From the NCBI GenBank assembly GCA_035687825.1, contig DASRUS010000237.1:1-36259 (forward strand): a stretch of 36,259 nt of DNA, given 5' to 3'. A program made the translations under genes and the position numbers. The notes under the pieces were generated by a model. That model did not search any database, was not told the DNA's origin, and saw nothing but the letters and a program-made list of their open reading frames with translations. Origin of the DNA: Myxococcota bacterium. GTDB lineage: Bacteria; Myxococcota_A; UBA9160; DASRUS01. Numbering within the stretch: the first letter of the stretch is position 1; every line of letters starts with the position of its first letter. Shown piece by piece: positions 14,676 through 31,335 of the stretch.

Positions 14676-14704
14676 TCGACACGGGAAGGCCCGGTTCGTA
14701 TCCT
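14676..14704 (+). promoter_or_regulatory. Candidate sigma-70-type promoter for rpsT (TCGACA-17 nt-TATCCT)
   Basis: The -35 element TCGACA is at 14676..14681, followed by a 17-nt spacer and the -10 element TATCCT at 14699..14704. The SD GGGAGGG sits at 14717..14723 and the TTG start at 14730. This is pattern matching only. Confidence 0.3.
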
Positions 14705-14729
14705 CGGCCCCCGCTCGGGAGGGAATCTC

Positions 14730-15008: not shown

Positions 15009-15172
15009 CGCAGCTACGGGGCTCGGCGAAGCCGGGTCGGCATAGGCCGGCAAGGCCGTGCTGGTCGGAGGTGGGCCCGGCCACTGAGGTCTTCCCGAGA
15101 CCGCATCCCCTCACCCGCACGTCGGAGCCTCGAGCGCGGCCGCGCAGCGAGGCGCAGCCGAGCGGAGTGAAA

Positions 15173-16818: not shown

Positions 16819-17199
16819 TCATGACACGATCTTGAGCAGGCCCTTCGCCACCGCGAGGACGCGGTTCGCCTGGATCGGCTTGGTGAGGTACTCGTCGGCG
16901 CCGAGGGCGAGGGCGCGCTCGCGGTCCTCGGTGGCGCCCTCCGTCGTGATCACGACGATGGGCATCTCCTTGAGCGAGTCCTCGCTGCGGATCAGGCTGA
17001 TGAGCTTGAGCCCGTCCATCACGGGCATGTTGATGTCCACCAGGGCCAGGTCGAAGTGGTCGCTCGTCACCTTGCGCAGCCCGTCCATGCCGTCCGAGGC
17101 CTCGACGATCTCGGCGTCCTTGAGCCGCTTCAGCGCGAACACGAGGAGCTGGCGCATCGTCGGGCTGTCCTCGACGATCAAGATGCGGCGACGCGACAT
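16819..17199 (-). CDS. cheY: CheY-like single-domain response regulator, distal copy
   Basis: The 126-aa product is MSRRRILIVEDSPTMRQLL...LALVDINMPVMDG...VVITTEG...GADEYLTKP. All receiver signature residues are present. The SD GGAGGAGGG lies upstream of the ATG at 17199. Confidence 0.9.
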   Translation of the reverse strand: MSRRRILIVEDSPTMRQLLVFALKRLKDAEIVEASDGMDGLRKVTSDHFDLALVDINMPVMDGLKLISLIRSEDSLKEMPIVVITTEGATEDRERALALGADEYLTKPIQANRVLAVAKGLLKIVS

Positions 17200-17222
17200 C
17201 GCGGGTCCCTCCTCCGCCCCGT

Positions 17223-18041
17223 CTACTTGGTGAGCAGGTCGATGAAGCCCTGGATCGTGTTCAGCTTGCGCTCGGAGAGCGAGTGCAGCCGCGCCGCGAA
17301 GATCGCCGTGGCGGCGTGTCCCGCCAGCAGCGTGAAGAGCTCGTGGTCGAGGGGGGAGAAGCCTTCCTTCTGGGCGAGCAGGCGGTAGATCGCGATGGCG
17401 CCGAGCGGTCGCTCCTGCACGCGCAGCGGGATGCACACGATGGGCCTCGAGAGATCCTGCGACGCGTGCACCCGCTCGCAGACGGTCTTGCCCGACTCCA
17501 CGCAGGCGCCGAGCACGCCGCGACCCAGCCGGAAGCTCGGAAAGGCCGCGAGCGCCTCGCCCTCCGCGGCCACCGCCTCGAGCTGCTGCGTCTTCTCGTC
17601 GAGCACGTAGACGGCGAAGGTCTCGGCGCCGATCAGGTTGATCACGATCTCGAGGACGATCTTCAGCACCTCGGAGAGGTCGAGGGTCGAATGCAGCTGG
17701 TAGCTCGCGACGTACAGGTTCGCGAGGTTGTTGTTCTCGTCCTCCACCTCGAGGTAGCGCGACGCGAAGTGGCGGTTCTCCTCCTCGATCTGCCGCAGGC
17801 GGTCGAGCACGCTCTGCCGCTCCGCCTCGAGGTGATCGATGCGCCGCAGCATCTCCCCGCGGAGCTTCTGCCACTCGTGCGGATCGCGCGCCGCCTGGGT
17901 GTGGTCCTCCTCCAGCGAGAGGAGCTGGCGCCGCAGGCGCTCGTTCTCCTGGACGAGCTCTTTCGCGAACTCCGCACCGCGCCGAAAGATGGTGGCGAAC
18001 TCGTCCGCCCGTTCGAAGATCCCCCGGCGATCGTCGCTCAT
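17223..18041 (-). CDS. Coiled-coil plus GAF-domain protein
   Basis: The 272-aa product has a heptad-rich N-terminal region of about 110 aa (ENERLRRQLLSLEEDH...LEAERQSVLDRLRQIEEENRHF). A GAF-like fold follows (LDLSEVLKIVLEIVINLIGAETFAVYVLDE...IVCIPLRVQERPLGAIAIYRLL). The ATG at 18041 overlaps the cheB stop (ATGA). Confidence 0.7.
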   Translation of the reverse strand: MSDDRRGIFERADEFATIFRRGAEFAKELVQENERLRRQLLSLEEDHTQAARDPHEWQKLRGEMLRRIDHLEAERQSVLDRLRQIEEENRHFASRYLEVEDENNNLANLYVASYQLHSTLDLSEVLKIVLEIVINLIGAETFAVYVLDEKTQQLEAVAAEGEALAAFPSFRLGRGVLGACVESGKTVCERVHASQDLSRPIVCIPLRVQERPLGAIAIYRLLAQKEGFSPLDHELFTLLAGHAATAIFAARLHSLSERKLNTIQGFIDLLTK

Positions 18042-19147
18042 GCGTCCCCTCGCTCCGGCGTGCGCCGCCGGCGGCCCCCGCGCGGTCGCGCCGCGGCGCC
18101 CGCGAGGCCGGCGTCGATGGCCCCGGCGATGCGTGCGAGGGGCAGCACCGCGTCCACCGCGCCCGTGCGGATCGCCTGCTGGGGCATGCCGAACACCACC
18201 GCCGACTCCTCCGACTCCGTAACGACCGTCCCCCCGGCTTCCTTGACGGCGCGCACGCCCTGGGCGCCGTCGTCGCCCATGCCCGTCAGCACGACGGCCA
18301 TGAGGTCGGCGCCGAAGTGCTTGGCCGCGGACACGAACATCCGGTCCACGGACGGGGTGTACTTGTCCCCCGGGGATCGCGGAACCAGCCGGACCCTCGG
18401 CTCGCCATCGTAGGTCCCAAATTCGATGTGGCACCCCCCGGGGGAAACAAGGACCCGACCCGGCTCGAGCCGATCCCCCTCCCGCGCCTCCCGGGCGGAG
18501 AAGGCGGTGAAGCGGTCGATGCGCTCGGCGAAGCTCGCGGTGAAGCCCCCCGGCATGTGCTGCGACACCACCACGGCGAAGGGCGGAGGCTCGGTGAAGG
18601 CGCCGAGCACCTGGGTCACCGCCGCCGGCCCGCCGGTGGACGCGCCGATCGCCACCACCCGCCGCGCCGCCGGGCTCGCGGGGGCCGGGCGTCGGGGCAG
18701 CAGGTCGGGCGCCGACGCGAGGCGCTCGCGCAGCTTGTCCATGCGGAGCTGGCGCAGCGCGTGGACCTTGCGCAGCAGCTCCTCCTGGATCGACTCGAGC
18801 TCCGGGGCCGCCCGGGGCGTGGGCTTCGCGATGAAGTCCACCGCGCCGAGGTCGAGCGCCTTGAAGACGTCCTGGGAGTGCGCCCGCCCGCTGATCACGA
18901 GCACCGGCGTCGGCCGCCGCGCGAGCAGCAGGCGCAGGAACGTGAAGCCGTCCATGCGCGGCATCTCGAGGTCGAGGGTCACGAGGTCGGGCTCCTGCTC
19001 CAGGGTCTTGCGCAGCGCCTCCTCGCCGTCGTGCGCCCAGTCGATCACGCGCACCAGCGGCGACGCCTCGAGCATGCGCGTGATCGTGCGCCGGCTGAAG
19101 GCCGAGTCGTCGATCACGAGCACGCGGATCGGACCCAGCGAGCTCAC
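18038..19147 (-). CDS. cheB: Chemotaxis response regulator protein-glutamate methylesterase CheB
   Basis: The 369-aa product has an N-terminal receiver (IRVLVIDDSAF...LVTLDLEMPRMDG) and a C-terminal esterase (IGASTGGP, SQHMPGGFT, LTGMGDDG). The GTG at 19147 overlaps the cheR stop (GTGA). Confidence 0.95.
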   Translation of the reverse strand: MSSLGPIRVLVIDDSAFSRRTITRMLEASPLVRVIDWAHDGEEALRKTLEQEPDLVTLDLEMPRMDGFTFLRLLLARRPTPVLVISGRAHSQDVFKALDLGAVDFIAKPTPRAAPELESIQEELLRKVHALRQLRMDKLRERLASAPDLLPRRPAPASPAARRVVAIGASTGGPAAVTQVLGAFTEPPPFAVVVSQHMPGGFTASFAERIDRFTAFSAREAREGDRLEPGRVLVSPGGCHIEFGTYDGEPRVRLVPRSPGDKYTPSVDRMFVSAAKHFGADLMAVVLTGMGDDGAQGVRAVKEAGGTVVTESEESAVVFGMPQQAIRTGAVDAVLPLARIAGAIDAGLAGAAARPRGGRRRRTPERGDA

Positions 19148-20073
19148 GCCGCGTCCTCCTCGGGTCCGAACGACGAGGCCGCCTCGCGCGCCAGCGCGTG
19201 CCACGCGTCCCGGGGCTCGTCGAGGCCGGGCTTGCGATACACCAGGTCGCTGCGCAGATGGCGGAGCTGGAAGGCGCTCGAGAGCTGGATCAGCGACTCG
19301 GAGTGCCCGAGCAGCAGGTAGCCCCCCGGACGGAGCTTCTCGGCGAAGGTCCCGATCACGCGGCGCTTCGACTCGAGGTCGAAGTAGATGATGACGTTCC
19401 GACACAGGATCACGTCGAGCGGGCCGAGCAGCCCCGCGCGCGACGGCTTGAGCAGGTTCATGTGCGCGAAGCAGACGTGGCGCTTCACCTCGTCGGAGAT
19501 GCGCCAGGCCCCGTCCTTCTCCACGAAGTACTGCGCCTGGAGGCGCCGCTCCATCTCGCGGAACGAGGCGGCGCGGTACACGCCCGCGCGCGCGCGCCGC
19601 AGCACCGTGCGGTCGATGTCCGAGGCGTAGAGCCGGAAGTCGCGGCCCGGGTGCAGCCCCGCTTCCAGGGCGAGGAGCACGATGGAGTACGGCTCCTCGC
19701 CGGTCGAGCAGCCCGCGCACCAGATCTGGAGCGGACCCGGCGTGCGCCGCCGCGCCGCCAGCTCGGGCAGGATCTCGTGGAGCAGCGCGCTGAGCTGGTT
19801 GCGCTCGCGCAGGAAATAGGTCTCGTTGGTGGTGACCTCGTCCACGAGCTGCGCCAGCTCCTCGTCGCCCGTGGCGGCGTGGCGCAGCTGGTAGTGGTAG
19901 GCCGCGAAGCTCCCGACCCCGAGCTGCCGGACGCGCGAGGCCACGCGCTTCTCGAGCAGGTAGCGGAGGTCGGGGCTGAACCACAGGCCGCAGTGGTCGC
20001 GGAGCAGGTCGGAGAACATCCGGAACTCCGCGTCCGACATGTGGAGCCGGGCTTCCGGTCGCTCGCCGGCCAC
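19144..20073 (-). CDS. cheR: Chemotaxis protein methyltransferase CheR
   Basis: The 309-aa ORF has ETYFLRE, the SAM-binding WCAGCSTGEEPYS, and CRNVIIYFD. The start is GTG 20073, or alternatively ATG 20040. Confidence 0.93.
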   Translation of the reverse strand: MAGERPEARLHMSDAEFRMFSDLLRDHCGLWFSPDLRYLLEKRVASRVRQLGVGSFAAYHYQLRHAATGDEELAQLVDEVTTNETYFLRERNQLSALLHEILPELAARRRTPGPLQIWCAGCSTGEEPYSIVLLALEAGLHPGRDFRLYASDIDRTVLRRARAGVYRAASFREMERRLQAQYFVEKDGAWRISDEVKRHVCFAHMNLLKPSRAGLLGPLDVILCRNVIIYFDLESKRRVIGTFAEKLRPGGYLLLGHSESLIQLSSAFQLRHLRSDLVYRKPGLDEPRDAWHALAREAASSFGPEEDAA

Positions 20074-20079
20074 GGCGCT

Positions 20080-22167
20080 CTAGCCCTCCAGCCGCGCGAG
20101 CGCGCGCAGGATCACGCTGCGCACGAAGTCGTCCTGCTCGGTCTCGAGACGCCGCAGGATCGACGGGATCGCCCTCGCGACGCCGCGCTCGGCGAGGACC
20201 TGCGTCGCCTCGGCGCGCACGCTCCACTCGCGGTGCGAGACGAGCGGCAGGATCCGCTCCAGGCACTCGGCGTCGCCGTGCGATCCGATGCAACGCAGCG
20301 CGGCGCGCAGGATCTCGGCATCGCCGCGCTCGAGCGCGACGAGCGTCCGCCGCGCCGACTCGCCGCCGCCCAGGCCGGAGAGTCCCTCGACGGCGGCGAG
20401 CGCGACCACGCCTTCGTCCTCGAGGGCGGCCCCGACCAGCGCGAAGCAGCGCTCGCGCGCCGCCCCTCCGGCCAGGTCGGCGGCGCGCGCCGCCACGGCG
20501 CGCACGGCAGCGGCGCGAACGCGCGCATCCTCGTCGCGCGCGAGGCAGGCGAGGTCGTCCAGCACCGCCGGCGCGTCGGAGCGCGCGAGCACCCCCGCCG
20601 CGGCGATCCGCACCAGCGCCGACTCGTCCGCCAGCGCGATGCGCAGCGACTCCGGGGCGCCCGCGGGTGCGGGCTCCCGGGCGAGAGCCTCGACCGCGGT
20701 GCGGCGCACCGCCGGCGACGGATCGGCGAGGAGAAGGTCCATGGAGATGCGGGCCTCGGGCGCCTCGAGGCGCGCCAGCACGCGGGCGATCTGCACGCGC
20801 TCCTCCTCCCCCGCCGAGGGCAGGCGCGCGACGAGGAGATCGGAGAGGGCCGCCGTGGCGCTCGCGCCGCGCGCGCCGCTCGCGATGGCCAGGAGCGTCG
20901 AGCCGATCGCCTCGAGCTCCCCGTCGGCGTCCCACTCCGGATCGCCGCCCGCGGCCGCGAGCCGGCGCACGAGGGCGGGCAGCGCCTCGGCCGATCCCAC
21001 GCCGGCGAGCGCGCGCACGGCCGCGACGCGGCACTCGGGGTCCGGGTCGTCGAGCGCCTGGAGCAGCCGGCGGTGCGCGCGCGGCCCCCGGCTCGCCGCG
21101 AGCACGCGGCAGGCGAGGGCGCGCGCCGCGACGGGGAGCCCGGGCCACGCCTCGTCGAGCGTCTCCTCCGCCGCGCCGCCCATCGCTTCGAGAGCGCCGG
21201 CCGCCACCTCGGCCAGGGCCTCGTCGCGGCCCGCGAGGAGGATCGGCACCACGAGCTCGCGGCGTCCGAGGAGGCCAAGGAACTGGATCAGCACGAGCTG
21301 GAGCGAGAGCTCTCCCTCGGCGAGGCGCTCGAGGGCGTCCTGCTCCACGCGCGAGCCCGCCGCCACGAGCTCGCGCACGCGCTCCACGAGGCGCTCCGCG
21401 CCGGACGGCTCGGCGCGCGCGAGGCTACGGAGCAGCGCCTCGATGGCCGCCTCCCGGGCGGAGCGCGAGGCGCCCCCGAGCCCCTTCAGCAGCACCTCCG
21501 CCGCCGCGGCGTCCTCGGAGCGGCCGAGCAGCGCGAAGGCCGCCGGGCGGAGCAGCGGATCGCCGCAGGCCGAGTCGAGCGCGGCGGCGTCCAGCACCGC
21601 GTCGAGCTGGACGAGGGCGCGCAGGGCGGAGAGGCGCACGAGGGGCTGCTCCGCGTCGCGCGTCGCGAGCGCGGCGAGCGCGGGCACGGAAGCCACGTGG
21701 CCCGTCGTGCCGAGCGCGTCGGCCGCCGCGCCGCGCACGTTGGGATCGGGGTCGCCGAGCATCTCCAGGAGCCGCGCCACGGCGCGCACGTCGCGGATCC
21801 CGGCCAGCGCGTCCACGGCGAGCTTGCGCACGTCCACGTCGCCGCTCTTGCTCGCCTCGAGGAGCCTCGGCACCACCGTCGCGCCGCAGCCCACGAGCGC
21901 TTCCACCGCCGCGTTGCGCCGACCGGGGTCGTCGCCGTCGGAGAGCGCCGCCACCAGCACCTCGGCCACGAGCTCGCTGCGCGGCGACGCGACCAGGCGC
22001 GCCACGGCCGCCTTGCGCACGCGCCAGCTCGAGTCCCCGAGGCGCGCCACCAGGAGCTCGAGCGCTTCGGAGTCGAGCGCCGCGAGGCGCTCGACGGCGA
22101 GGCGCCTCACCTCCTCGTCGGGGCTCCGCAGATCCTCTCGAATGACGTCTCGCTCGCGCAGATCCAT
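20080..22167 (-). CDS. HEAT-repeat (PBS-lyase-like) protein, 695 aa
   Basis: The ORF contains many repeats of the D..(V/W)RVR..A(A/V).AL(G/A) type: SSWRVRKAAVARL, DPDPNVRGAAADALG, DPDPECRVAAVRALAG, DPSPAVRRTAVEALA, DEDARVRAAAVRAV, REWSVRAEATQVLA. The ATG lies 7 nt after the upstream stop. Confidence 0.8.
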   Translation of the reverse strand: MDLRERDVIREDLRSPDEEVRRLAVERLAALDSEALELLVARLGDSSWRVRKAAVARLVASPRSELVAEVLVAALSDGDDPGRRNAAVEALVGCGATVVPRLLEASKSGDVDVRKLAVDALAGIRDVRAVARLLEMLGDPDPNVRGAAADALGTTGHVASVPALAALATRDAEQPLVRLSALRALVQLDAVLDAAALDSACGDPLLRPAAFALLGRSEDAAAAEVLLKGLGGASRSAREAAIEALLRSLARAEPSGAERLVERVRELVAAGSRVEQDALERLAEGELSLQLVLIQFLGLLGRRELVVPILLAGRDEALAEVAAGALEAMGGAAEETLDEAWPGLPVAARALACRVLAASRGPRAHRRLLQALDDPDPECRVAAVRALAGVGSAEALPALVRRLAAAGGDPEWDADGELEAIGSTLLAIASGARGASATAALSDLLVARLPSAGEEERVQIARVLARLEAPEARISMDLLLADPSPAVRRTAVEALAREPAPAGAPESLRIALADESALVRIAAAGVLARSDAPAVLDDLACLARDEDARVRAAAVRAVAARAADLAGGAARERCFALVGAALEDEGVVALAAVEGLSGLGGGESARRTLVALERGDAEILRAALRCIGSHGDAECLERILPLVSHREWSVRAEATQVLAERGVARAIPSILRRLETEQDDFVRSVILRALARLEG

Positions 22168-22174
22168 CTTCCCC

Positions 22175-23209
22175 TCACTTCATGCCGCGCGCCTTCGCTA
22201 CGCGCAGCAGCTCGTCGCGCAGGAAGTCGCGGTGTTCGCGCACGCGCGCCTCGACGCGCTCGCGGAGAAGGCCCTGCCCCTCGTCGAGGTCCGCGGCGAA
22301 GGCCGCGAGCACGTTGCCGGCGCGCACCGCCTCGGCGAAGCGATCCTGGTTGTAGAGCACGATGTCGGACACGACGATCCGGGCCAGGCGCTCGGCCTTC
22401 GCCACCGCGTCGGCGAGCGCGGGGTCCGCGAGCGGCGGCGTCTCGGGCGGAGCCGGCGCCGTCCGCGCCGCGGCGACGGGCGCTCGCGGCGCGGCGCTCG
22501 GGGCCTTCGGCGCGGGCGCGACGGGCGCCTCCCGGCGCACGCCGGGGGGCGGAGCCGCGGGCTCGGCGGGCGCGCTCGGCGGACGCGGCCTGGCCGCCTC
22601 CCGCTCGCTCGGAACGGGGAGGCCCATGCGCCGCAGCGTCTCGAGCGCGGCGTCGGGCAGGGTCGCGTCCTCGAGGTACGCGTCGGCGCCGTAGAGCTCG
22701 CTCGGCGGCCGGCGGTAGCGCTCGGGATGGTGATGGCTGCCCACCAGGAGCACGCGGATGGAGCGCAGGCTCTCGTTGCGCTTCATGAGCTCGCACACCT
22801 GGAAGCCGAACATCTTGGGCAGCGCGGCGTCGAGCACGACCGCCCGCGGCATCGCGCGCTGGATCGCGAGGATCGCCTCGACGCCGTCGTGGGCGAGCAC
22901 CGTCTCGAGGCCGACCCGGGAGAGCGCCGCCGCGGTGCGCTTGGCGCGCTCGGGATCGGGATCGGCGACCACGACCAGGCGCGAGCGATCCCGCGCCGGC
23001 GGCGCGGGCGCCGGGGCTCGCGCCTCCGCCGCGCTCGCCACGCCGCGGGGCTCCGATCCCACCGCGCCGACGGACGCGCTCGCCGCGGCCGGCGGGCGGA
23101 CGCGGAACACCGCCTCGCAGCGCGAGCAGCGCAGGCGCACGCCCTCCGGCCGGATGCGATGCCGCTCGATGCGGTAGCGCGCTCCACACTTGGGACAAGC
23201 CGCGATCAT
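22175..23209 (-). CDS. MJ0042-type zinc-ribbon plus atypical receiver domain plus conserved C-terminal helical module
   Basis: The 344-aa product starts with CPKCGARYRI...LRCSRCEAVFRV. The receiver-like core is LVVVADPDPE...VVLDAALPKMFG...VLLVGS...GADAYLEDA, with Glu where the conserved Lys normally sits. A Pro/Ala linker follows, then the C-terminal AERLARIVVSDIVLYNQDRF. Confidence 0.7.
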   Translation of the reverse strand: MIAACPKCGARYRIERHRIRPEGVRLRCSRCEAVFRVRPPAAASASVGAVGSEPRGVASAAEARAPAPAPPARDRSRLVVVADPDPERAKRTAAALSRVGLETVLAHDGVEAILAIQRAMPRAVVLDAALPKMFGFQVCELMKRNESLRSIRVLLVGSHHHPERYRRPPSELYGADAYLEDATLPDAALETLRRMGLPVPSEREAARPRPPSAPAEPAAPPPGVRREAPVAPAPKAPSAAPRAPVAAARTAPAPPETPPLADPALADAVAKAERLARIVVSDIVLYNQDRFAEAVRAGNVLAAFAADLDEGQGLLRERVEARVREHRDFLRDELLRVAKARGMK

Positions 23210-23272
23210 CGCCGTCCTTCGCCTCGCTTCCTTCTCGGCCCCTGGGCCCGTCTCGACCTACACGCAGAAGAG

Positions 23273-25828
23273 TCAGGTTCTGAACCGCTCCACGTCGGTG
23301 CGCAGCGACGCGGCGCGTTCGCGCAGGCTGCGGGTGGCCTCGGCCATGCGGCGCACGGAGTCTTCGTGGGTCTGGGTGCGTCCGGCCACGCGTCCGAGCC
23401 CGGCCGCCGCCTGCGCGCACGCCTCGCTCTGCTCGCGCAGCCGCCGGTGGATCGCCTCGGTCGCCTCGCGCACCCCCTCGACGCTCTCGCCGATGCGCGC
23501 CGCCCCCCGCGCCTGCTCCTCGGTCGTGCGGTGCACCGAGCTCGCCACCTCCCGCATCGCCCCGACCGCCGCTCCCACCACCGCGTGGCCCCGCTCCTGC
23601 TCCCCGCCCGCGGCCCGGATCCGCTCCACCCCCTCGCGCACCCCCTCCATCAATCCCACCACGTGGCCCGCCGCCCGGCTCTGCTCCCGCACCGCCCCCG
23701 CGATCCCCCGCACCCGCTCCCCGCTCGAGCGCGCCGAGGCCGTGATCGCCTCGAGCGCCTCCCCGGCCTGCGCCGACAGATCCACCCCCGAGAGCACCGA
23801 GCGCGCTCCCCCCTCGATCGCCGCCTGCGCCTGCGTGCTCTCCTCCTGCACCGCTTTGATCAGACCCGCGATCTCCTTCGTCGAGGCCATCACCCGGTCC
23901 GCCAGCTCCTTGATCTCGTCGGCCACCACCGAAAACGCCCGGCCCGACTCCCCCGACTGCGCCGCGATGATGGCGGCGTTGAGCGCGAGCAGGTTCGTCT
24001 CGTCCGCCACCTCGTCGATCACGTCCACGATCGCCCCGATCTCCCGCGCCCGAAGCAAGAGCCCCCGCATCACCCCCTCCGCCACCTCCACCGCCTCCCG
24101 GATCGCCTCCATCCCCTCGATCGTCTGGCGCACCCGCTCGCGGCCCACCTCCGCCTGCTCCACCACGCCCCCCGAAAGCCTCCCCATCTCCCCCGCCGCC
24201 GCGTCCACCTCCTTGAGCGAGCTCGCCATCTCCTCCATCGACGACGACGTCTCCCCCGCCGCCCGACCGAGCGCCTCCGCCTCCCCGGCCACCTCCCGCA
24301 CGCTCGCCGCCGCCTCCACCAACGCCCCCGTCACCTCCTCCACCCGCTCCGATAAACCCTGCGCCGTGCGGTTCAGCTCCTCCCCCGTCGCCCGAAGCTC
24401 CATCCCCGTGCTCGACGACTCCTCCACCGACTCCCCGAGCGACGCCGCCTGCGACGCGATCCCTGCCACCCCCTCCCGCAGCTCTTCCACCGAGCGCCGC
24501 GCCGACGCCAATCCCCCCACCTGGTCCACCGTCGCCTCCTCCACCTCCACCCCGACCCGCTCCAGCTCCCGCGCCGTCACCTCCACTCCCTCCGCCGCCT
24601 CCGCCACCCGACCCACCGTCTCCCGCAACCACCCCACCATCCGCTCGAACGACCGCGCCAGCTCCCCCAGCTCGTCCTCCGACTCCAACACGAACCCCCG
24701 ACGCAAATCCCCCGACGCCACACGGTCCGCCTGGGCGGCCAGCGCCGCCGTGGCGCCGCTCACGTCCGCGGCCAGCAGGCGCGCGAGGATCCCCGCGGCG
24801 AGGCACGCCGCGCCGAGCAGCACGCCGAAGGTGAGCCATAGCCGGTGCAGGTGCGGGGCCAGCGCGTCCGGGGCCAGCGCGGCGACCGCCACGCGCGAGG
24901 CGTCCAGGCGCGTCCAGGCAAAAACGTGTCGGGCGTCGAAATCGCGGCTGTCCCCCGCGCGGCCGCCGGCGCTGCGCACCGCCTGCCATTCGGACGGCGC
25001 CAGCGGACCGCCCCCGGCCGAGTCCGCGTCGAGGATCTCGACGTGCTGCGCGATGCCGAGCGCAGAGGCCTCTTCCCGGAGCGCGGCGAGCGCCGCCTCG
25101 CCCCCGACCGCCAGCCGGGCGTGCGCGCGCTCGAGGAAGCGCCGCTGGAGCTCTGCGGCGCGGGTCTCGAGCGGCGCGCGCGCGTGCACCTCGGCCAGGA
25201 AGAACGCGAAGAGCACGCTGGAGAGCGCGAGACCCCCGAGCGACACGACGAGCTTCGCGCCGATCGGGACACGAGGCGCGAGCGCGCCGCGCTCGCGCGG
25301 ATCGGGGAGCGCCCGGGCGAGCTCCCCGCGCAGGGCTGCGAGGCGCCTCTTCACCCCCAGGAAGAAGAGCGCGTTCATCGCGAAGCCGCCCGTCGCGGTG
25401 GCGGCGAGGATCACGAGGACCGGGCCCGGGCCGAGATCGCGGAAGCACAGCTTCATCCCCGCGGCGAGGAAGACGCCCCCCGCCACGTAGCCGGTGAGAC
25501 CGAGCAGGAACGCGCGGCGCGGAAAGTCCATCACCGCGCGGAAGGCGGCGCGCGTCGCCTCCGGCGGGGCCGCCGACCCGGCGCGCAGGTCGAGCCAACG
25601 CACGATCGGGGCGCGGATGCCGTGGGTGATCCGCTCGGAGAGCAAGGCGAAGACCGCCGCGTACCCCGCCAGGAGCCACCCGAAGGTGTGCCACTGCGGG
25701 GGCGTCAGGCGCAGCAGCGCCACCAGGTAGCCCACCACCACCGACGCCGCGCCGAAGCCCACCCCGGACTGGAGCACGAGGAGCTGGCGCCGGAACACGG
25801 CGCCCGTCGGCAGCGATCGCGTGCTCAC
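23273..25828 (-). CDS. mcp: Methyl-accepting chemotaxis protein with six predicted TM helices and a HAMP domain
   Basis: The 851-aa tail of ORF 23273..26263 has a GTG at 25828 overlapping the cheW stop (GTGA). HAMP reads ADRVASGDLRRGFVLESEDELGELARSFERMV. The signalling hairpin reads EIGAIVDVIDEVADETNLLALNAAIIAAQSGESGRAFSVVADEIKELA. Confidence 0.93.
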   Translation of the reverse strand: MSTRSLPTGAVFRRQLLVLQSGVGFGAASVVVGYLVALLRLTPPQWHTFGWLLAGYAAVFALLSERITHGIRAPIVRWLDLRAGSAAPPEATRAAFRAVMDFPRRAFLLGLTGYVAGGVFLAAGMKLCFRDLGPGPVLVILAATATGGFAMNALFFLGVKRRLAALRGELARALPDPRERGALAPRVPIGAKLVVSLGGLALSSVLFAFFLAEVHARAPLETRAAELQRRFLERAHARLAVGGEAALAALREEASALGIAQHVEILDADSAGGGPLAPSEWQAVRSAGGRAGDSRDFDARHVFAWTRLDASRVAVAALAPDALAPHLHRLWLTFGVLLGAACLAAGILARLLAADVSGATAALAAQADRVASGDLRRGFVLESEDELGELARSFERMVGWLRETVGRVAEAAEGVEVTARELERVGVEVEEATVDQVGGLASARRSVEELREGVAGIASQAASLGESVEESSSTGMELRATGEELNRTAQGLSERVEEVTGALVEAAASVREVAGEAEALGRAAGETSSSMEEMASSLKEVDAAAGEMGRLSGGVVEQAEVGRERVRQTIEGMEAIREAVEVAEGVMRGLLLRAREIGAIVDVIDEVADETNLLALNAAIIAAQSGESGRAFSVVADEIKELADRVMASTKEIAGLIKAVQEESTQAQAAIEGGARSVLSGVDLSAQAGEALEAITASARSSGERVRGIAGAVREQSRAAGHVVGLMEGVREGVERIRAAGGEQERGHAVVGAAVGAMREVASSVHRTTEEQARGAARIGESVEGVREATEAIHRRLREQSEACAQAAAGLGRVAGRTQTHEDSVRRMAEATRSLRERAASLRTDVERFRT
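23588..23646 (-). repeat. Coding-region partner of the 59-bp repeat at 16720..16778
   Basis: The segment lies inside mcp and encodes GVREGVERIRAAGGEQERG. It is 57/59 identical to the intergenic copy and in the same orientation. Confidence 0.9.
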
Positions 25829-26319
25829 GGTCGCGACTCCTCGACGCCCGAGCGCTCGATGCTCGCGAGCAGATGCTCGAGTGAGAGGATCAAGACGGGC
25901 GGTCCCCCCTCGCGGCGCACGATGCCGGTCACCGCGCCGTAGCCCGCTTGCGCGGCGAGGGCCGGGGTCGGCTCCACCTGCGAGGCGTCCAACGAGAGGA
26001 CGTCCAGCGCGGCTTCGGCGCGCAGCCCGAAGCGGACCCCCTCCACCTCCACGAGCGCGACGCGCTGGCCTCGCGCGGGCGCGAGGGGCTCGCCGTCGAG
26101 GGCGCGGCCCAGGTCGACCACCGGGACGACGCCGCTGCGCAGCTCCATCACGCCTTCGATGAGGCGCGGCGCGAAGGGCAGCGGGACCAGCGCTTCGGCG
26201 CGCACGATCTCGCGCACGTGCGCGAGCTCGATCGCCACCACGCGGCCGCGCAGCTCGAGGCACGCGAGCTCGACGCGACCTCCGCTCGCGGCGGGCGCGC
26301 GTTCAGCCGGCATCGCCAA
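25825..26319 (-). CDS. cheW: CheW-like coupling protein, second of a tandem pair
   Basis: The 164-aa ORF is a single CheW-like domain (ELRGRVVAIELAHVREIV...VMELRSGVVPVVDLGRAL...VALVEVEG). The start is TTG 26319 or ATG 26313, and it overlaps the upstream cheW by 11-17 nt. Confidence 0.85.
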   Translation of the reverse strand: MAMPAERAPAASGGRVELACLELRGRVVAIELAHVREIVRAEALVPLPFAPRLIEGVMELRSGVVPVVDLGRALDGEPLAPARGQRVALVEVEGVRFGLRAEAALDVLSLDASQVEPTPALAAQAGYGAVTGIVRREGGPPVLILSLEHLLASIERSGVEESRP

Positions 26320-26818
26320 GCTCGAGCACCCGATCTACGTCGAGGACGGACACGAACCGGCCCTGCCACGTGCAGAGCTCCGCCACCGCTCCCGCCTCGC
26401 CCGCCGGCGCGGGTTCGAGCTCGGAGTCCGGGACGCGCAGGACGTCGCTCGCGGCGTCCACGCGCAGCCCCGCCGCCTCTCCGTCCGCGGCGTGGAGCAC
26501 CACGATGCGCTGGCTGCGCCCCGGCTCCGCGTCCGCGAGGCCGAGGCGCCGCCGCAGGTCCACCACCTCGATCATCTCGCCGCGCAGCGCCACCACGCCG
26601 AGGATCGCGTGGGGCGCCCGGGGGATCGGGGTGATCGGGCGCAGGCGCACGATCTCGCGCACGCGCTCCACGGGCACCGCGTATGCGTCGCCTGCGGCGC
26701 GCAGCAACAGGAACTCGCGCAGGAGCGCGCTCTCCTCGGCGCGCGCCGTGGCCCGCGCGAGCTCGCGGAAGCCCGCCGCGCCCGGGGCGCGCGCGCCGCT
26801 CGTCGGGCCCGCGCTCAC
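26303..26818 (-). CDS. cheW: CheW-like coupling protein, first of a tandem pair
   Basis: The 171-aa tail of ORF 26303..28825 reads FLLLRAAGDAYAVPVERVREIVRLRPITPIPRAPHAILGVVALRGEMIEVVDLRRRLG. The GTG at 26818 overlaps the cheA stop (GTGA). Confidence 0.85.
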   Translation of the reverse strand: MSAGPTSGARAPGAAGFRELARATARAEESALLREFLLLRAAGDAYAVPVERVREIVRLRPITPIPRAPHAILGVVALRGEMIEVVDLRRRLGLADAEPGRSQRIVVLHAADGEAAGLRVDAASDVLRVPDSELEPAPAGEAGAVAELCTWQGRFVSVLDVDRVLELGDAG

Positions 26819-28878
26819 GCGGCCTCCCGCCGGCGCAGCCCTTCGTCCACGAGCGCCGCCACGTCGAGCACGAGCACCGCCTGCTGGTCGCCGAGCTCCG
26901 TGGCTCCCGCGATGCCCTGCACCGCGGCGAGGGGACCCTGCAGCGGCTTCAGCAGCGCGTCCTGCTGGCCGTCGAGGCGGTCCACGAGCAGGCCCGCGCG
27001 CGACTCGCCGAGGCCGACGACGACCGCGAACTGTCGCGCACCCGGCTCCGGCGCGGCGAGGCCGAACACGTCCGCGAGGCGGCGCAGCACGAGCGGCTCG
27101 CCGCGCAGGGAGAGCAGCTCGCGGCCCTCGCTGCGCTGGATCGCGCCCGGCTCCACCACGAGCGTCTCCTGCACCGCGCCGAGGGGGATCGCGAAGCGCT
27201 GGCCCCCGGCGGCCACGACGAGCGCCTGGATGATGGCGAGGGTGATGGGCAGCGTGAGCGAGACGCGCGTGCCGCGGCCCGGCTCGGAGTCGAGCTCCAC
27301 CGCGCCGCCGAGCGCGGTCACGTTCGCGCGCACCACGTCCAGGCCGACGCCGCGCCCGCTCGTCTCGGTCACGCCGTCGCGCGTGGAGAAGCCCGGCGCG
27401 AAGACGAGCGCCAGGGTCTCGGAGCGGGAGAGCGCGTCCTCCGCCCGCACCAGACCGCTCCCCTCGGCGCGCTCGCGCACCCGGGCGGGGTCGATGCCGC
27501 GGCCGTCGTCGGTCACGGCGATCACCACGTGGTTGCCGCGCTGGCTCGCCTCGATGCGGATCTCTCCCAGGGCGGGCTTGCTGGCGGCGCGTCGCTCGTC
27601 CGCGGGCTCGATCGCGTGGTCGAAGGCGTTGCGCACGAGGTGCATGAGCGGATCGACGAGCTCCTCCACGATGAGCTTGTCGAGCTCGGTGTCGGCGCCG
27701 CGGATCTCGAGGCGCACGTCCTTGTCGAGGTCGCGGCGCAGCCGCCGCGCCACGCGCGAGAGGCGCTCGAACACCTGGCGCAGCGGCACCATGCGCACGT
27801 CGAGGACGCCGGCCTGGAGGTCCTGGAGCTTGCGGTCGAGGGAGCGGTGCACCTTGTGGAGCTCGACGGCGACGCGCGCGGTGGCGGGCTCCTGGGCCAG
27901 ACGCTGCGCGATCGACTCGAGGGCGCCGCGCTGGAGCACGAGCTCGCCGACCAGGTTCATGAGCTCGTCGAGCTTGCGGATGTCCACGCGCACCGTGTCG
28001 CTCTGCGAACGGAGCGACTCGCCCTCGCCCGGGAGCGCGGCCTCGAGCCCGGTCTCCGACGCGGCGGCAGGCGCCGGGCTCGCGTCGGAGGAAGCTTCCG
28101 CCGCCGGGGACTCGGCGCTCGCGGCCGCCACGAGCTCGCGCACCGCGTCCTCCGCGAGCTCGAGGCGCGCGGCGAGCTCGCGCGCCACGAGATCGCTCCC
28201 CACCAGCAGCGAGAAGCGGATCTGCGGCTGCACCGCGTCGCCGGGCGAGGGCAGGGTCGAGATCAGCTCGCCCACCTCGGCGATGGCGGCGTTCGCCTCG
28301 CGCAGACCTTCCTCGAACGACGCGAGGTCGAAGCCGAGCTCGACGCAGAGCAGCCGGCGCCCCCGGCGCAGGTTCTCGCGCAGGCGGTGCTCCTCGTACT
28401 CCGTGAGGGCGCGCAGGAGCGCGGGATCGATGGGCAGCGCCTCGAGCGCCGGCTCGGGCGCCCCGCCACACGCGCGCTCGATGCGCGCCACGAGGTCCCG
28501 GACCGAGCCCTCCAGGGCCTGCGCGCCGTCGGCCGAGGGCAGCTCCCCGAGCGCGCGCGCGAAGAGCGCCACCGCCTCGTCGAGGAGCGGAAGCGCCGGT
28601 GAATCGAGCCTCACGCGCGAGAGGCGCAGGCCGTCGAGGAGGTCCTCGGCCCGGTGCGCGAGCTCGCCGAGCGCGTCGAAGCCGAACATGCCGGAGAGGC
28701 CCTTCAGCGAGTGCGCCGAGCGGAACAGTCGGTTCACGAGTGCGGGATCCGCGCCCTCGCCGCGCGCCCGCGCCTCGCCGAGGTCCGCGAGGTCCGCGCG
28801 CATGCGCTCCAGGATCTCCTCGCACTCGGAGACGAACTCGCGATGCGCCTTGCTGCGGCGGGGTCCGCGTCTCGCCAT
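26815..28878 (-). CDS. cheA: Chemotaxis histidine kinase CheA
   Basis: The 687-aa ORF has an HPt domain with RSAHSLKGLSGMFG, a dimerisation region (VRVDIRKLDELMNLVGELV), an HATPase domain (HLVRNAFDHAIE, DDGRGID, GRGVGLDVV) and a C-terminal CheW-like P5 domain. There is no fused receiver. Confidence 0.95.
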   Translation of the reverse strand: MARRGPRRSKAHREFVSECEEILERMRADLADLGEARARGEGADPALVNRLFRSAHSLKGLSGMFGFDALGELAHRAEDLLDGLRLSRVRLDSPALPLLDEAVALFARALGELPSADGAQALEGSVRDLVARIERACGGAPEPALEALPIDPALLRALTEYEEHRLRENLRRGRRLLCVELGFDLASFEEGLREANAAIAEVGELISTLPSPGDAVQPQIRFSLLVGSDLVARELAARLELAEDAVRELVAAASAESPAAEASSDASPAPAAASETGLEAALPGEGESLRSQSDTVRVDIRKLDELMNLVGELVLQRGALESIAQRLAQEPATARVAVELHKVHRSLDRKLQDLQAGVLDVRMVPLRQVFERLSRVARRLRRDLDKDVRLEIRGADTELDKLIVEELVDPLMHLVRNAFDHAIEPADERRAASKPALGEIRIEASQRGNHVVIAVTDDGRGIDPARVRERAEGSGLVRAEDALSRSETLALVFAPGFSTRDGVTETSGRGVGLDVVRANVTALGGAVELDSEPGRGTRVSLTLPITLAIIQALVVAAGGQRFAIPLGAVQETLVVEPGAIQRSEGRELLSLRGEPLVLRRLADVFGLAAPEPGARQFAVVVGLGESRAGLLVDRLDGQQDALLKPLQGPLAAVQGIAGATELGDQQAVLVLDVAALVDEGLRRREAA

Positions 28879-28881
28879 GCG

Positions 28882-29268
28882 CTATCCCCCCGCGCGCGAG
28901 CCGTCGAGCAGCGTCTGCGCGAGGCGACGCAGCTCGGCGGGATCGAACGGCTTCACCAGGTACGCGTCGGCTCCGAGCTCGAGGCCCTTCTCGCGATCGC
29001 GTTCGGAGCCCTCGGTGGAGATGATCACGAGGGGGATCTGCCGATACGCTTCGTTGCGCTTGATGAACGAGACGAGCTCGAGCCCGTTGATGTCGGGCAT
29101 GTTGATGTCGGTGAGGATCAGGTCGTAGCGCGCGCGGGGGAGCTGGCGCAGCGCCTCGAAGCCGCTCTCGGCCTCCGTCACCTTCACCGGCGCGTCGAGG
29201 TCTTCGAGGGCCGAGACGAGGAGCGACCGCATGGTCGCCGAGTCCTCCACGACGAGAACGCGATGCAC
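28882..29268 (-). CDS. cheY: CheY-like single-domain response regulator, first gene of the che cluster
   Basis: The 128-aa product is VHRVLVVEDSATMRSLL...LILTDINMPDINGL...VIISTEG...GADAYLVKPF. The GTG at 29268 follows AGGGGGG. The stop lies 3 nt before the cheA ATG. Confidence 0.88.
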   Translation of the reverse strand: MHRVLVVEDSATMRSLLVSALEDLDAPVKVTEAESGFEALRQLPRARYDLILTDINMPDINGLELVSFIKRNEAYRQIPLVIISTEGSERDREKGLELGADAYLVKPFDPAELRRLAQTLLDGSRAGG

Positions 29269-29664
29269 GGGACCCCCCTGCGCCCCAGCCGCGGGGCGGC
29301 TCGGGTCGTATCGGTGTCCCGGTGGCTTTCTTGAGGCGGCGGGCGGACTTCCGACTTGTTCACTCCGCTCGCCTACGGCTCGCTGCGCGCCCGGGCTGGA
29401 GACTCCGAAGGACGTTCTTGCATTCTCGTGAGGCGGAGTACCCAGCGCCCGGGACCCACTCCCACCAGCCCGGGCTTGCCGGCGGCTCGCACACGGTCCG
29501 CGAGTATCCGAATCGGCGTCCGCAAGGAACGCGCCGGAGGCGGGCAAGTCCGTGCTGGTTGCACCCGGCCGGGGCGGGAAGGCCTCAGACGCGCGGGACC
29601 AGCGAACCCCCGGGCGAAGCCTCGAGCACGGACGCGCAGCGAGCCGCAGGCGAGCGGAGCAAGG
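29269..29664 (-). other. 396-nt non-coding spacer upstream of the che cluster, a presumed promoter or 5' leader
   Basis: This is the largest gap in the window. All ORFs in it have junk composition. It contains the least GC-rich patch of the region (gagaatgcaagaacg on the minus strand, about 29411..29426). I could not identify a convincing promoter. Confidence 0.4.
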
Positions 29665-31335
29665 TCATCGGTTGCGCAGGGCGCGATCGAGGGCCTCGCC
29701 CGCGGCGCGGAGCAGCGACTCGAGCGCGGTGCACTCCGGGAGGGGTCCATCGCCCGGGAGGGTGTCGGCGTAGAGCAGCGCCACCACGGCGCTCTCGGTG
29801 GCGAGGGGCGCCACGAAGGCCTGCGACGCCGGCGCGCCGCCGAGCAGCGCCGCGAGACGCAGGTCGCCCTCGTCCGACGGCGGCCCCCCGGCGGGCGCGC
29901 GCGTCTCCAGCACGCGGCGGAACCACGCCGGCTCGTCCGCGCGCAGGGCCACCCGCCGGATTCCCGAATCGTCGGGTCCCCCCGCGCTCGGGAGCCCCAC
30001 CTGCGCCATGCCGAGCGCGGCGCCGTCGCGCACCATGAAGACCGCGACGCGCGAGAACGTCTCGGCCGCGAGACGCAGCACCAGGGGCAGCACCTCGCCG
30101 CGGAAGCTGGGGTCGCGCAGGCGCGCCGCCGCGGCGCCGATCCGCTCGGCCAGCGTGGGCGGCGGCGCTGCGGCGCCGCCGTTCGCGGGCACCACGAGTG
30201 CCGGCAGCGGCTCCAATTCCGGCTGCGGCGCCGCCGCCCGCTCCGCGCCCGCGCCGAGCGACGCGACGCACGCGCGCAGCGCGGCCTCGAGCTCGCGCTC
30301 GCCCCCCGGCTCCGGCCGCGGCAGCACGCCGTCGAGAGCCTCGGGCGCGCGCTCCGGCCGGCTGCCTCCCTCCTCGAGGAGGAAGACCGGCATGCGCGGC
30401 GCCTGGGTCTTCAAGCGCGCGAGGATCTCGCGCCAGTCGCGCGCGCCGCTCAGCGGATCGGGGGGAGTGCGCGACGAGAGGATCACGACCGGCGTCTCGC
30501 CGCGCGCGAGGTAGTGGCGGATGCGCGCGATGCCGAGGTCCGAGCGCTGGAAGACGTGGATGCGCGCGGCCGCGTCGGCGAGGCCGCGCTTGATGCGCTC
30601 CAGATCCGGAAGCTCGGGCTCGATCACCACGACCGGGGGGAGCTCGCCGGGCGCGCTCCCGCGTCGGCCGCGGGCGGCCGCGCGCGGCGGGGCGGAGGTC
30701 GCCTCCCGCGCAACTTCGAGCGGCGCCCGCTCGGCCGCGCGCGACGTCTCCTCCGGCTCGGGCTCGGGCGTCCAGATCTCGTCGCCGTCGCTCGGGTCTT
30801 CCTCCGACGCCGCCCGCGCGCCGGGCTCGGGCTCCCCGCGCGCGCGGCGCTCGTCCTGGAGGCGCGTGCCCTCGAGCGCGAGGAACTGGGGATTCATTCC
30901 CGTGGCGAGGACGAGGTCGGCGTCGCGGTCGTGCTCGCCCGCGAGCCCCATCTCGAAGCTGAACTCGCCGGCCGCCCAGTGGAACATGCGCAGCACCGTC
31001 GCCTCGACGTGCTCGAGGCGCAGCGCCGCGATCCGCGCCGCGCTGGCGACGCCCTCCCGGGCGAGGACCTCGGCGAGCGAGGCTCCGCTCTCGTGCGCCG
31101 CCCGGGCGAGCTGCTCGGCCGCCTCGGGCCCGAGCGCCCCGCGCGCGACCAGCAGCTCGCGCAGGTCGGTCGGCCCGCCCTCGAGCTCGGCGGCGCGGAT
31201 CTCGCCGTCGCGGAACAGGATCCAGCCCTTGCCGTCCTCGCAGCGCAGGCAAAGTTGCCCCGACTTCCGCGACAGGCTGATGATCTGGAGGATCTCGCCC
31301 AGGCCGAGATCCTCGAGACTTCCCACCAGGCTCAT
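29665..31335 (-). CDS. DUF4388 (PatA-N-like) plus pseudo-receiver plus GAF-like domain protein
   Basis: The 556-aa tail of ORF 29665..31863 starts MSLVGSLEDLGLGEILQIISLSRKSGQLCLRCEDGKGWILF. After an acidic/Pro linker comes a receiver-like segment lacking the acidic pocket (VVVIEPELP...VVILSSRTPP). The C-terminal region is GAF-like (VLPLVLRLAAETFSRVAVFMVRDG...VVALLYADTL). Confidence 0.65.
   Translation of the reverse strand: MSLVGSLEDLGLGEILQIISLSRKSGQLCLRCEDGKGWILFRDGEIRAAELEGGPTDLRELLVARGALGPEAAEQLARAAHESGASLAEVLAREGVASAARIAALRLEHVEATVLRMFHWAAGEFSFEMGLAGEHDRDADLVLATGMNPQFLALEGTRLQDERRARGEPEPGARAASEEDPSDGDEIWTPEPEPEETSRAAERAPLEVAREATSAPPRAAARGRRGSAPGELPPVVVIEPELPDLERIKRGLADAAARIHVFQRSDLGIARIRHYLARGETPVVILSSRTPPDPLSGARDWREILARLKTQAPRMPVFLLEEGGSRPERAPEALDGVLPRPEPGGERELEAALRACVASLGAGAERAAAPQPELEPLPALVVPANGGAAAPPPTLAERIGAAAARLRDPSFRGEVLPLVLRLAAETFSRVAVFMVRDGAALGMAQVGLPSAGGPDDSGIRRVALRADEPAWFRRVLETRAPAGGPPSDEGDLRLAALLGGAPASQAFVAPLATESAVVALLYADTLPGDGPLPECTALESLLRAAGEALDRALRNR

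Follow-up and report, generated by a model that had tools for sequence, protein, structure and literature searches.

The window analysed here, 36,259 nucleotides (nt) of contig DASRUS010000237.1 from a Myxococcota bacterium, contains a cluster of chemosensory (che) genes at 16819-29268; all positions given are those of the whole stretch. Because the G+C content of the window is approximately 75%, mechanical lists of open reading frames (ORFs) are full of artefacts, and genes were therefore called from G+C content at third codon positions (GC3) together with stop-to-stop and ORF analysis, followed by domain assignment with Pfam and NCBIfam. GC3 and stop-to-stop analysis place nearly all coding in the window on the minus strand, and the cluster consists of 11 consecutive minus-strand genes, each with an intact ORF and a GC3 of at least 0.9. 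A preliminary description of this DNA had counted 12 genes, four of them non-canonical passengers, but its own list and the window both contain 11 genes with three passengers; the larger numbers are correct if an upstream gene encoding a PATAN protein is included. These three passengers and the upstream PATAN protein are the four conserved accessory proteins of a single module.

The cluster begins and ends with canonical single-domain receivers, CheY_a (28882-29268, minus strand as for all genes below; 128 residues; Response_reg, E 2e-29) and CheY_b (16819-17199; 126 residues; E 9e-29). Inspection of the sequences shows that CheY_a has the full set of acidic pair, phospho-Asp, Thr and Lys, and that the catalytic residues are present in CheY_b. 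CheA (26815-28878; 687 residues) has the Hpt, dimerisation, HATPase and CheW-like domains recognised by Pfam and lacks a fused receiver. It is followed by CheW1 (26303-26818; 171 residues; Pfam CheW, E 6e-36), the start of which overlaps the cheA stop by 4 nt, CheW2 (25825-26313; 162 residues; E 1e-26), which overlaps cheW1 by 11 nt, and a methyl-accepting chemotaxis protein (MCP; 23273-25828; 851 residues) with Pfam HAMP and MCPsignal domains. The adaptation enzymes are CheR (19144-20073; CheR_N and CheR), a methyltransferase of 309 residues, or 291 if it starts at the ATG at 20019, and CheB (18038-19147; 369 residues), which combines a receiver with a methylesterase, scores 360 bits and above the cutoff with NCBIfam model NF001965, and overlaps cheR by 4 nt.

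The three passengers lie in two places within this frame. Between mcp and cheR are a 344-residue protein (22175-23209; Pfam Zn_ribbon_4 and Response_reg) composed of a Zn ribbon, an atypical receiver (REC), a Pro-rich linker and a RomX-like domain, referred to here as ZnR-REC-RomX, and a 695-residue HEAT/PBS-type alpha-solenoid protein (20080-22167; HEAT_2 in six stretches, E 2e-61). Between cheB and cheY_b is a 272-residue protein (17223-18041) in which weak coiled-coil-type Pfam matches precede a GAF_2 domain (E 4e-17), and which overlaps cheB by 4 nt. Pfam thus confirms every domain assignment that had been made before. Sequence searches of the PDB added little for these proteins: designed alphaRep PBS-HEAT proteins were the closest matches to the HEAT protein, with nothing more specific, and only generic receivers and one weak GAF match were found for CheY_b and the GAF protein, respectively.

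The junctions, in gene order from cheY_a, measure +3, -4, -11, -4, +63, +7, +6, -4, -4 and +23 nt. All are 63 nt or shorter, as had been reported; the five 4-nt overlaps described earlier are in fact four 4-nt NTGA overlaps plus the 11-nt overlap, and the tight coupling that they were taken to indicate stands. The same junctions are closely spaced in related genomes. We identified these using the ZnR-REC-RomX protein as query, which has more than 1000 homologues of the same architecture and relatives in 296 GTDB species; the best 80 loci, all from uncultured Myxococcota-type metagenome-assembled genomes (MAGs), were analysed, and 27 window proteins were compared with them by tblastn. Overlaps of 4 nt are present at cheA/cheW1 in 54 of 57 loci, at cheW2/mcp in 49 of 51, at the junction of the ZnR-REC-RomX and HEAT genes in 55 of 75, at cheR/cheB in 59 of 65 and at cheB/GAF in 47 of 56, and the operon-like coupling is evidently real.

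Approximately 70 of these 80 independent species-level loci share the cluster order, passengers included, within a longer conserved block that reads ribD-ribH-nusB-M17N-PATAN, then cheY-cheA-cheW-cheW-mcp-ZnR/REC-HEAT-cheR-cheB-GAF-cheY, then lptE-holA-unk812-PATAN-phoH; the clustering is far beyond chance. Median identities across the loci are 83% for CheY_b, the most conserved protein of the cluster, 72% for CheY_a, 64% for CheB, 61% for both the GAF protein and CheR, 59% for CheA, 49% for the HEAT protein and 48% for ZnR-REC-RomX. The GAF protein is therefore conserved to the same degree as CheA, CheR and CheB, and only a few loci have no detectable GAF gene. This synteny extends to Desulfuromonadales (see below), and since it spans two phyla and is accompanied by conserved 4-nt overlaps, we regard the passengers as integral, translationally coupled parts of the system and genuine partners of the che genes, as had been proposed, and reject the view that they are hitch-hikers.

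Some related loci are reduced. Four of them (L016, L036, L042 and L048) have lost cheA, cheW, mcp, HEAT, cheR, cheB, GAF and cheY_b and retain, in the interval from the PATAN gene to lptE, an intact ZnR-REC-RomX gene, in some cases accompanied by cheY_a; retention of this particular gene is partly an ascertainment effect, because its product was the search query. Three others (L055, L060 and L061) have truncated cheA, mcp or cheB genes, or apparent cheA/mcp fusions produced by deletion. Such loci give some substance to the idea that in this lineage the cluster is decaying and has ceased to work as a unit. In the window, however, all 11 ORFs are intact with high GC3, no frameshifts or stops are seen in the cluster genes, the CheY catalytic residues and the overlaps are kept, and a copy that is 99% identical and yields the same gene calls is present in an independent metagenome contig, so that we consider decay of this cluster extremely improbable.

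The gene immediately upstream of the cluster (29665-31335, minus strand) lies outside the region covered by the preliminary description, which had the cluster bracketed by housekeeping genes. This is only partly so, because the immediate upstream neighbour encodes a PATAN (DUF4388) protein (Pfam E 5e-23) and is itself a member of the conserved module; the middle of the protein is a degenerate receiver-like region, and its C-terminal domain is conserved. This gene precedes cheY in 54 of the related Myxococcota loci, and it aligns with the PatA_N+Response_reg gene that opens one Desulfuromonadales cluster (L086) with 28% identity over 95% of its length; the matches in a second (L087) are shorter and split. 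In Geobacter argillaceus the PATAN-REC gene overlaps cheY by 4 nt. In the window protein the receiver positions corresponding to DD, D and K read EP, S and R. Judged by sequence and position, this gene is the orthologue of the PATAN-REC gene at the head of the Geobacter and Desulfuromonadales clusters and is part of the module. In L087 the PATAN gene call (8256-9911) runs into a CheY-like C-terminus; the cause may be fusion of PATAN with CheY, a frameshift or an artefact of assembly.

The window PATAN gene ends 396 nt before cheY_a, compared with a median of 164 nt in the related loci, and this intergenic region (29269-29664), the sole large gap on the upstream side, is the presumed promoter region for the minus-strand cluster. 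A scan of it revealed no sigma-70 consensus; no Rfam family matches in the window, and a terminator scan of the window found terminators not above chance expectation.

The Geobacter and Desulfuromonadales loci were reached from a CheA representative by way of named CheAs, and the window proteins were compared with them by tblastn. Two loci of the Desulfuromonadales type (L086 and L087) contain, following Der, genes for PATAN-REC, CheY, CheA, an AAA protein, CheW, CheY, CheW, ZnR+REC, HEAT, CheR, CheB, GAF and CheY, followed by IF-1 and LeuS. Their Zn_ribbon+REC proteins have 330 and 295 residues, the HEAT proteins 663 and 670, and the GAF proteins 274 and 278, respectively. Every window protein finds its best match at the corresponding position in these loci: identities are 62-63% for CheY_a, 47-48% over 98% of the length for CheA, 32-38% for the CheWs, 47-49% for CheR and 51-52% for CheB. 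The passengers follow the same rule, with the GAF protein 51-52% identical over 97-99% of its length (E 5e-87), the HEAT protein 32-34% identical at 97% coverage (30-34% over 91-100% when Geobacter is included), and the ZnR-REC-RomX protein 27-32% identical at 94-97% coverage (E ~1e-34) and encoded at the same gene position.

Geobacter argillaceus and a Geobacter sp. (L082 and L085) lack the ZnR-REC and GAF genes but otherwise share this frame, namely Der, then PATAN-REC, CheY, CheA, AAA ATPase, CheW, CheY, CheW, HEAT, CheR, CheB and CheY, then a cytochrome and LeuS. The window CheA is 43-45% identical to Geobacter CheA, and CheY_b is 65-69% identical to the last CheY of the Geobacter and Desulfuromonadales clusters, with 65-68% in L086 and L087. 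The chromosomal setting also corresponds: cheY_b adjoins lptE-holA, the same block that the Geobacter cluster abuts, and leuS itself is not adjacent in the window. In a further MAG (L084; JADJOY010000021.1, 10001-16332) only CheA-CheW-CheW is present, directly ahead of leuS-lptE, with four genes lacking a Pfam match in front, such that the chromosomal position is the same and the rest of the module is absent. The cytochrome between the last cheY and leuS in the two Geobacter loci (19106-21229 in L082 and 19352-21490 in L085) is a multihaem protein of about 710 residues, a suggestive finding in view of the electrode phenotype known for the G. sulfurreducens genes described below.

Clusters of this type have been catalogued since 2007-2008. 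Tran et al. (2008) defined a deltaproteobacterial 'beta group' of che clusters, without an mcp gene, conserved in Geobacter, Anaeromyxobacter, Stigmatella, Plesiocystis and Myxococcus xanthus (PMC2577667), and Thomas et al. (2008) reported that Anaeromyxobacter and G. sulfurreducens conserve the che8 cluster of M. xanthus (PMC2330069). The G. sulfurreducens version, cluster 5 (GSU2212-GSU2223), is annotated in transposon-sequencing tables with cheY40H-1 to -4 as GSU2223, 2219, 2217 and 2212, cheW40H as GSU2220 and 2218, cheA40H as GSU2222, an ATPase as GSU2221, and leuS, lptE and holA as GSU2209-2207; its CheW GSU2220 is EsnB and its CheA GSU2222 is EsnC (PMC5585712). Two genes of the cluster type have phenotypes in Geobacter. 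The suggestion that the window might hold an undescribed architecture therefore largely falls, since nearly every gene of the cluster has its orthologue in the beta-group cluster defined in 2008 (PMC2577667) and partly characterised as EsnB and EsnC (PMC5585712). On sequence comparison and gene order we consider it very probable that the window contains the Myxococcota MAG version of the beta-group/Che8/G. sulfurreducens che5 (Esn) cluster.

Several differences weigh against this assignment. The window has an MCP gene within the cluster, and the beta group was defined as lacking one; it also lacks both the AAA ATPase (GSU2221 type), which follows cheA in all four of the Geobacter and Desulfuromonadales loci L082 and L085-L087, and the middle CheY (GSU2219 type), which in these loci lies between the two cheW genes. 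At both places the window genes overlap instead (cheA/cheW1 and cheW1/cheW2). Finally, the equation with Che8 relies on two papers and on the gene numbering of MXAN_4751-4759 and GSU2212-2223.

The additional MCP is itself of the expected kind. It is a polytopic membrane protein with approximately five hydrophobic segments by hydropathy, followed by HAMP and a long methyl-accepting hairpin with its tip near residues 609-645. Its alignment with Geobacter GSU2372 is free of gaps, with 38% identity over 382 residues, and takes in both of the 14-residue insertions relative to Tar; this colinearity with Geobacter 40H-block sequences, together with the two insertions, points to a 40H-type receptor of the long form. 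The arms, of approximately 228 and 223 residues, suggest a long, 40+24H-like form, the class being assigned from colinearity and the insertions. A 40H type fits the '40H' label of the Geobacter cluster. The position of mcp varies among the Myxococcota loci, where it is found before the ZnR-REC-RomX gene, after the last cheY, or in both places, which suggests that mcp is a secondary acquisition, or mobile addition, to an originally mcp-less beta-type frame. It follows the last cheY in L010, L014, L015, L024, L032 and L057, and L005, L006, L020 and L025 are among the loci with two MCP matches.

The preliminary description had instead compared the cluster with Che7 of M. xanthus, and the corresponding alternative is an undescribed architecture of the 'alternative cellular function' kind related to Che7, in which the HEAT protein would be the partner of CheY and the ZnR-REC and GAF proteins would be lineage-specific additions. 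In Che7, CheY is reported to signal to a HEAT protein, Cpc7 (Darnell and colleagues, 2014), and the cluster also contains a fatty-acid desaturase, Des7. No desaturase domain was found by Pfam in any window gene. A HEAT protein has been associated with Che7 (PMC9040617), and Che7 has one unnamed gene, MXAN_6961, between mcp7 and cheR7 (PMC3945109), the interval in which the window HEAT-repeat gene is found. Both are non-motility-type Che systems, the window CheA (687 residues) is close in length to CheA7 (683 residues), and Che7 and Che8 fall in one phylogenetic group (PMC3945109). Che7, however, has one CheW, one CheY and a soluble Mcp7 (PMC3945109), as opposed to two CheWs, two CheYs and a polytopic MCP in the window, and it lacks ZnR-REC-RomX, the GAF protein and the second CheY; the designation 'Che7 orthologue' was rejected on gene content.

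The two CheYs, two CheWs and two non-che genes before cheR match Che8 and not Che7, and the same accessory set is found at the same positions in Desulfuromonadales, in a cluster type described in 2008. The Geobacter and Desulfuromonadales loci thus largely refute a Che7-related novelty, and we consider it very unlikely. The earlier observation that the accessory set differs from that of Che7 is supported; the choice of Che7 and Cpc7 as comparators was mistaken. The literature equates the G. sulfurreducens cluster with Che8 (PMC2330069).

With the cluster assigned to the beta group, the most informative clue to its output lies in the ZnR-REC-RomX protein. This had been described as a Zn ribbon with an atypical receiver, and both are indeed present, but a third domain, the most informative one, had been missed. 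In an alignment of 31 family members the protein resolves into four segments. An MJ0042-type Zn ribbon comes first, a receiver-fold domain and a Pro-rich linker follow, and the C-terminus is a domain of about 75 residues with strong conservation. The Zn ribbon (23099-23209, minus strand; residues 1-37) has the pattern CPxC...CxxC with invariant cysteines (TIGR02098, E 1e-10), and there is a weak match to the N-terminus of GltJ (NF033761, E 2e-6, residues 4-63). The receiver-fold domain (22640-22981; residues ~77-190) is predicted by AlphaFold with a predicted local distance difference test (pLDDT) score above 90 and matches receiver domains in Foldseek searches. Its active site is non-canonical, with an invariant Ala82 at the first acidic position, Asp127 in 26 of the 31 sequences (Ser or Asn in the others), Gly157 or Ser at the Thr position and Glu180 at the Lys position; an RYRRxP motif is invariant. 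A PDB sequence search showed no specific similarity to any solved RomR-type receiver.

The C-terminal helical domain (22178-22423; residues ~263-344) matches no Pfam model. A profile of this domain gives a single match in the PDB, M. xanthus RomX (8zna; E 8.9e-16, 61 bits), and the pairwise alignment has 33% identity over 60 residues (E 3e-12). The predicted structure (pLDDT 93.6) also has 8zna as its sole fold match (probability 1.00, template modelling scores of 0.70/0.66, root-mean-square deviation 2.3 Å), all other matches having E values above 4. With the whole protein, receiver matches dominate the fold search, and the relationship to RomX is visible only when the C-terminal domain is given its own profile and model. 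Sequence profile and predicted structure concur in identifying this domain as a RomX homologue. In M. xanthus RomX, residues R11, R14 and D19 on helix 1 are needed for binding MglA-GTP and for exchange activity, and helix 3 (L75, R76 and W87) binds the RomR receiver (10.1101/2024.02.20.581209). The equivalents of the first three, R274, R277 and D282, are invariant in all 31 sequences and are present also in the Desulfuromonadales homologues.

The preprint describing RomX reported, from a Foldseek search, uncharacterised proteins with Zn-finger, receiver and RomX-fold domains, one of them from Desulfuromonas, and recalls that the GltJ Zn ribbon binds MglB (10.1101/2024.02.20.581209). The word 'chemotaxis' occurs zero times in that preprint, and che clusters are unmentioned. 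A RomX domain inside a che operon of this kind is not described in the literature that we searched. The earlier statement that the window has no flagellar, pilus or gliding genes thus leaves out of account one passenger, in which RomX-like and GltJ-type Zn-ribbon domains are present; the classification as a non-flagellar system of the 'alternative function' type is supported.

We propose that the membrane-bound 40H-type MCP, the two CheWs and CheA would form an array adapted by methylation through CheR and CheB, with CheA phosphorylating CheY_a, CheY_b and CheB. The signal would leave the array through protein-protein contacts and not by way of flagella or a DNA-binding regulator. The HEAT solenoid may be the docking platform for phospho-CheY, a role for which there are precedents in the HEAT protein associated with Che7 and in Halobacterium, where a HEAT_PBS protein acts with the CheY-binding CheF between CheY and the motor. 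The ZnR-REC-RomX protein, the gene for which is next to and translationally coupled with that for the HEAT protein, could link the module through its RomX domain to the GTP form of an MglA-type Ras-like GTPase, with the GltJ-like Zn ribbon possibly connecting to MglB. The PATAN protein may provide a link to the type IV pilus motor, to which PATAN-REC regulators bind in Synechocystis according to a preprint (10.1101/2021.06.11.447907). For the GAF protein, which is coupled to CheB, candidate roles are the reception of a small-molecule input or the modulation of adaptation, and the likely read-out would be cell polarity or surface behaviour.

Taken together, orthology with the beta group and Che8 combined with a mechanism of this kind is the explanation that we favour, with moderate confidence. 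The link to MglA is less secure. That the output passes through an MglA-type GTPase is a tentative suggestion from residue conservation, and the complete scheme, in which a Che8/beta-group module is wired to MglA by ZnR-REC-RomX with HEAT as the phospho-CheY platform and PATAN as the pilus-motor link, is possible but doubtful.

A number of observations count against MglA wiring. No mglA or mglB gene is present in the window or in the 20-kb related loci. The alignment with RomX ends at residue 72, before the RomR-binding residues L75, R76 and W87; beyond this point the family has a conserved basic residue (LRVARxRG) and no counterpart of the Trp, which the window protein is too short to reach. 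The RomX-like domain may be only an intramolecular partner of the adjacent receiver, as helix 3 of RomX binds RomR-REC, and the invariant Arg/Arg/Asp residues could be structural rather than MglA-binding. Moreover, the function of ZnR-REC-RomX cannot depend strictly on this CheA, since the four reduced loci keep the gene and have lost the kinase. Whether RomR/RomX are a guanine nucleotide exchange factor or an effector of MglA is itself disputed (PMC13408092).

An alternative retains the same cluster identity and dispenses with a small GTPase. Biofilm or matrix functions or stress genes would then be controlled by the CheYs themselves or by orphan regulators that are cross-phosphorylated, for example a diguanylate cyclase or a receiver that modulates transcription, while the HEAT, GAF and ZnR-REC-RomX proteins would be array-internal scaffolds or adaptation modulators, with the RomX-like bundle packed on its own receiver. 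Cyclic nucleotides are common ligands of GAF domains, and the GAF protein would fit such a scheme. The helix 3 contact of RomX with a receiver likewise favours it, and preliminary data tie the beta cluster to extracellular matrix (PMC2577667). In G. sulfurreducens, esnB and esnC mutants, in common with EsnA (an orphan GAF-MCP) and EsnD (a diguanylate cyclase), have electrode-colonisation defects (PMC5585712); the known downstream player is EsnD, and MglA is not involved. In M. xanthus, CheA8 has been linked to the phosphorylation of MXAN_4468, an orphan receiver in control of groEL, again with no MglA (PMC9040617). These two findings also speak against the GTPase route. On the other side, the residues that bind MglA-GTP in RomX are on helix 1, which is not the receiver-binding helix, and they are invariant in the family; and the RomX-like domain is accompanied by a GltJ-type Zn ribbon and a PATAN protein, both tied elsewhere to motility or polarity machinery. 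We hold an output without a GTPase to be conceivable rather than probable. The known phenotypes fit control of surface behaviour, and equally a route through cyclic di-GMP or matrix.

The architecture itself is thus not news, but Che8 has no assigned function in M. xanthus, and the Geobacter phenotypes concern only CheA and one CheW. The passengers, core components in two phyla, provide concrete and testable hypotheses for this old question of output: a RomX domain with intact MglA-binding residues, its HEAT neighbour, and a PATAN regulator in front. Candidate genes are available in tractable organisms, namely GSU2213, GSU2216, GSU2217, MXAN_4754 and MXAN_4755. If wiring to MglA were true, the module would be a second chemosensory route to the control of cell polarity alongside Frz, conserved across Myxococcota and Desulfuromonadota, and would explain the electrode-colonisation defect of the Geobacter esn mutants.

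Beyond the module, the upstream side carries rpiB-glyA, nrdR, ribD, ribH, nusB and a stand-alone Peptidase_M17_N protein ahead of the PATAN gene. The last of these (31428-32063, minus strand), the N-terminal domain of M17 leucyl aminopeptidase alone, lies between nusB and the PATAN gene and is kept in 48 loci; with MSLVG (31335) taken as the PATAN start, there is no overlap between the two genes. At the edge of the window, an ORF that runs off its end (34564-36258, minus strand) encodes in one frame, with no stop between them, RpiB/LacAB (residues 2-112) and a full serine hydroxymethyltransferase (residues 129-504), and looks like an rpiB-glyA fusion. The fusion may be variable between lineages, because the serine hydroxymethyltransferase query was covered to 99% in some related loci and to 76% in others.

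Downstream of the cluster are lptE, holA, a gene for an 812-residue membrane/TPR protein, a second PATAN gene, phoH, ybeY, lnt, prfB, lysS, lolE/lolD-like genes and bamA. The second DUF4388/PATAN protein (11496-12611, minus strand; 371 residues), next to phoH-ybeY, is kept in 40 loci, and two PATAN genes therefore flank the che cluster. Between it and holA is an ORF of about 800 residues with an uncertain start codon (12615-15053, minus strand). Weak TPR matches, several hydrophobic segments and, near residue 674, a stretch rich in Cys (CxxC...CxxC...CxxC) characterise its product, which is approximately 36% identical in 43 related loci and matches no Pfam family.

Comparison with known systems shows what is shared and what is particular to this cluster. 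The cyanobacterial Tax1/Pix operon (PixG, a PATAN-REC protein, PixH, a CheY, and PixI/J/L) is likewise headed by a PATAN regulator with a single-domain CheY directly after it, but it has a different sensory input and no HEAT, GAF or RomX genes, and the window PATAN protein has lost its phospho-acceptor residues. With RomR/RomX of M. xanthus the window shares a receiver, a Pro-rich linker and the RomX three-helix bundle with its conserved Arg/Arg/Asp. M. xanthus RomX, however, is a stand-alone protein of about 95 residues that partners a separate RomR, whereas here the bundle is fused C-terminally to a Zn ribbon, receiver and linker; the gene lies within a che operon, Thr and Lys are missing from their canonical receiver positions, and there is no RomR-like Glu-rich C-terminal region.

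M. xanthus Che8 (MXAN_4751-4759) has a CheY at each end, two CheWs and two unnamed genes that separate cheW8a from cheR8, and lacks an MCP (PMC3945109). The window shares the terminal CheYs, the paired CheWs, CheR, CheB and a CheA that has no receiver fused to it, and the two unnamed genes are exactly at the position of its ZnR-REC-RomX and HEAT genes. The Che8 numbering leaves no slot for a GAF gene between cheB8 and cheY8a, and CheA8 has 862 residues as opposed to 687 here. (An 859-residue representative, P0230, was considered as CheA8-like and rejected, its relatives being CheAs of the Nitrospinae and Firmicutes types.) The closest counterpart is the beta group, including G. sulfurreducens che5 (Esn). 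Apart from the differences already listed, it is set apart by the degenerate receiver of the window PATAN protein, by leuS not being adjacent, and by the window lineage belonging to an uncultured Myxococcota group; it shares the order PATAN-REC, CheY, CheA, CheW, CheW, ZnR-REC, HEAT, CheR, CheB, GAF, CheY, a CheA without a fused receiver, a PATAN regulator directly before the first cheY, the leuS/lptE/holA block, receptors of the 40H type and a context free of flagellar genes.

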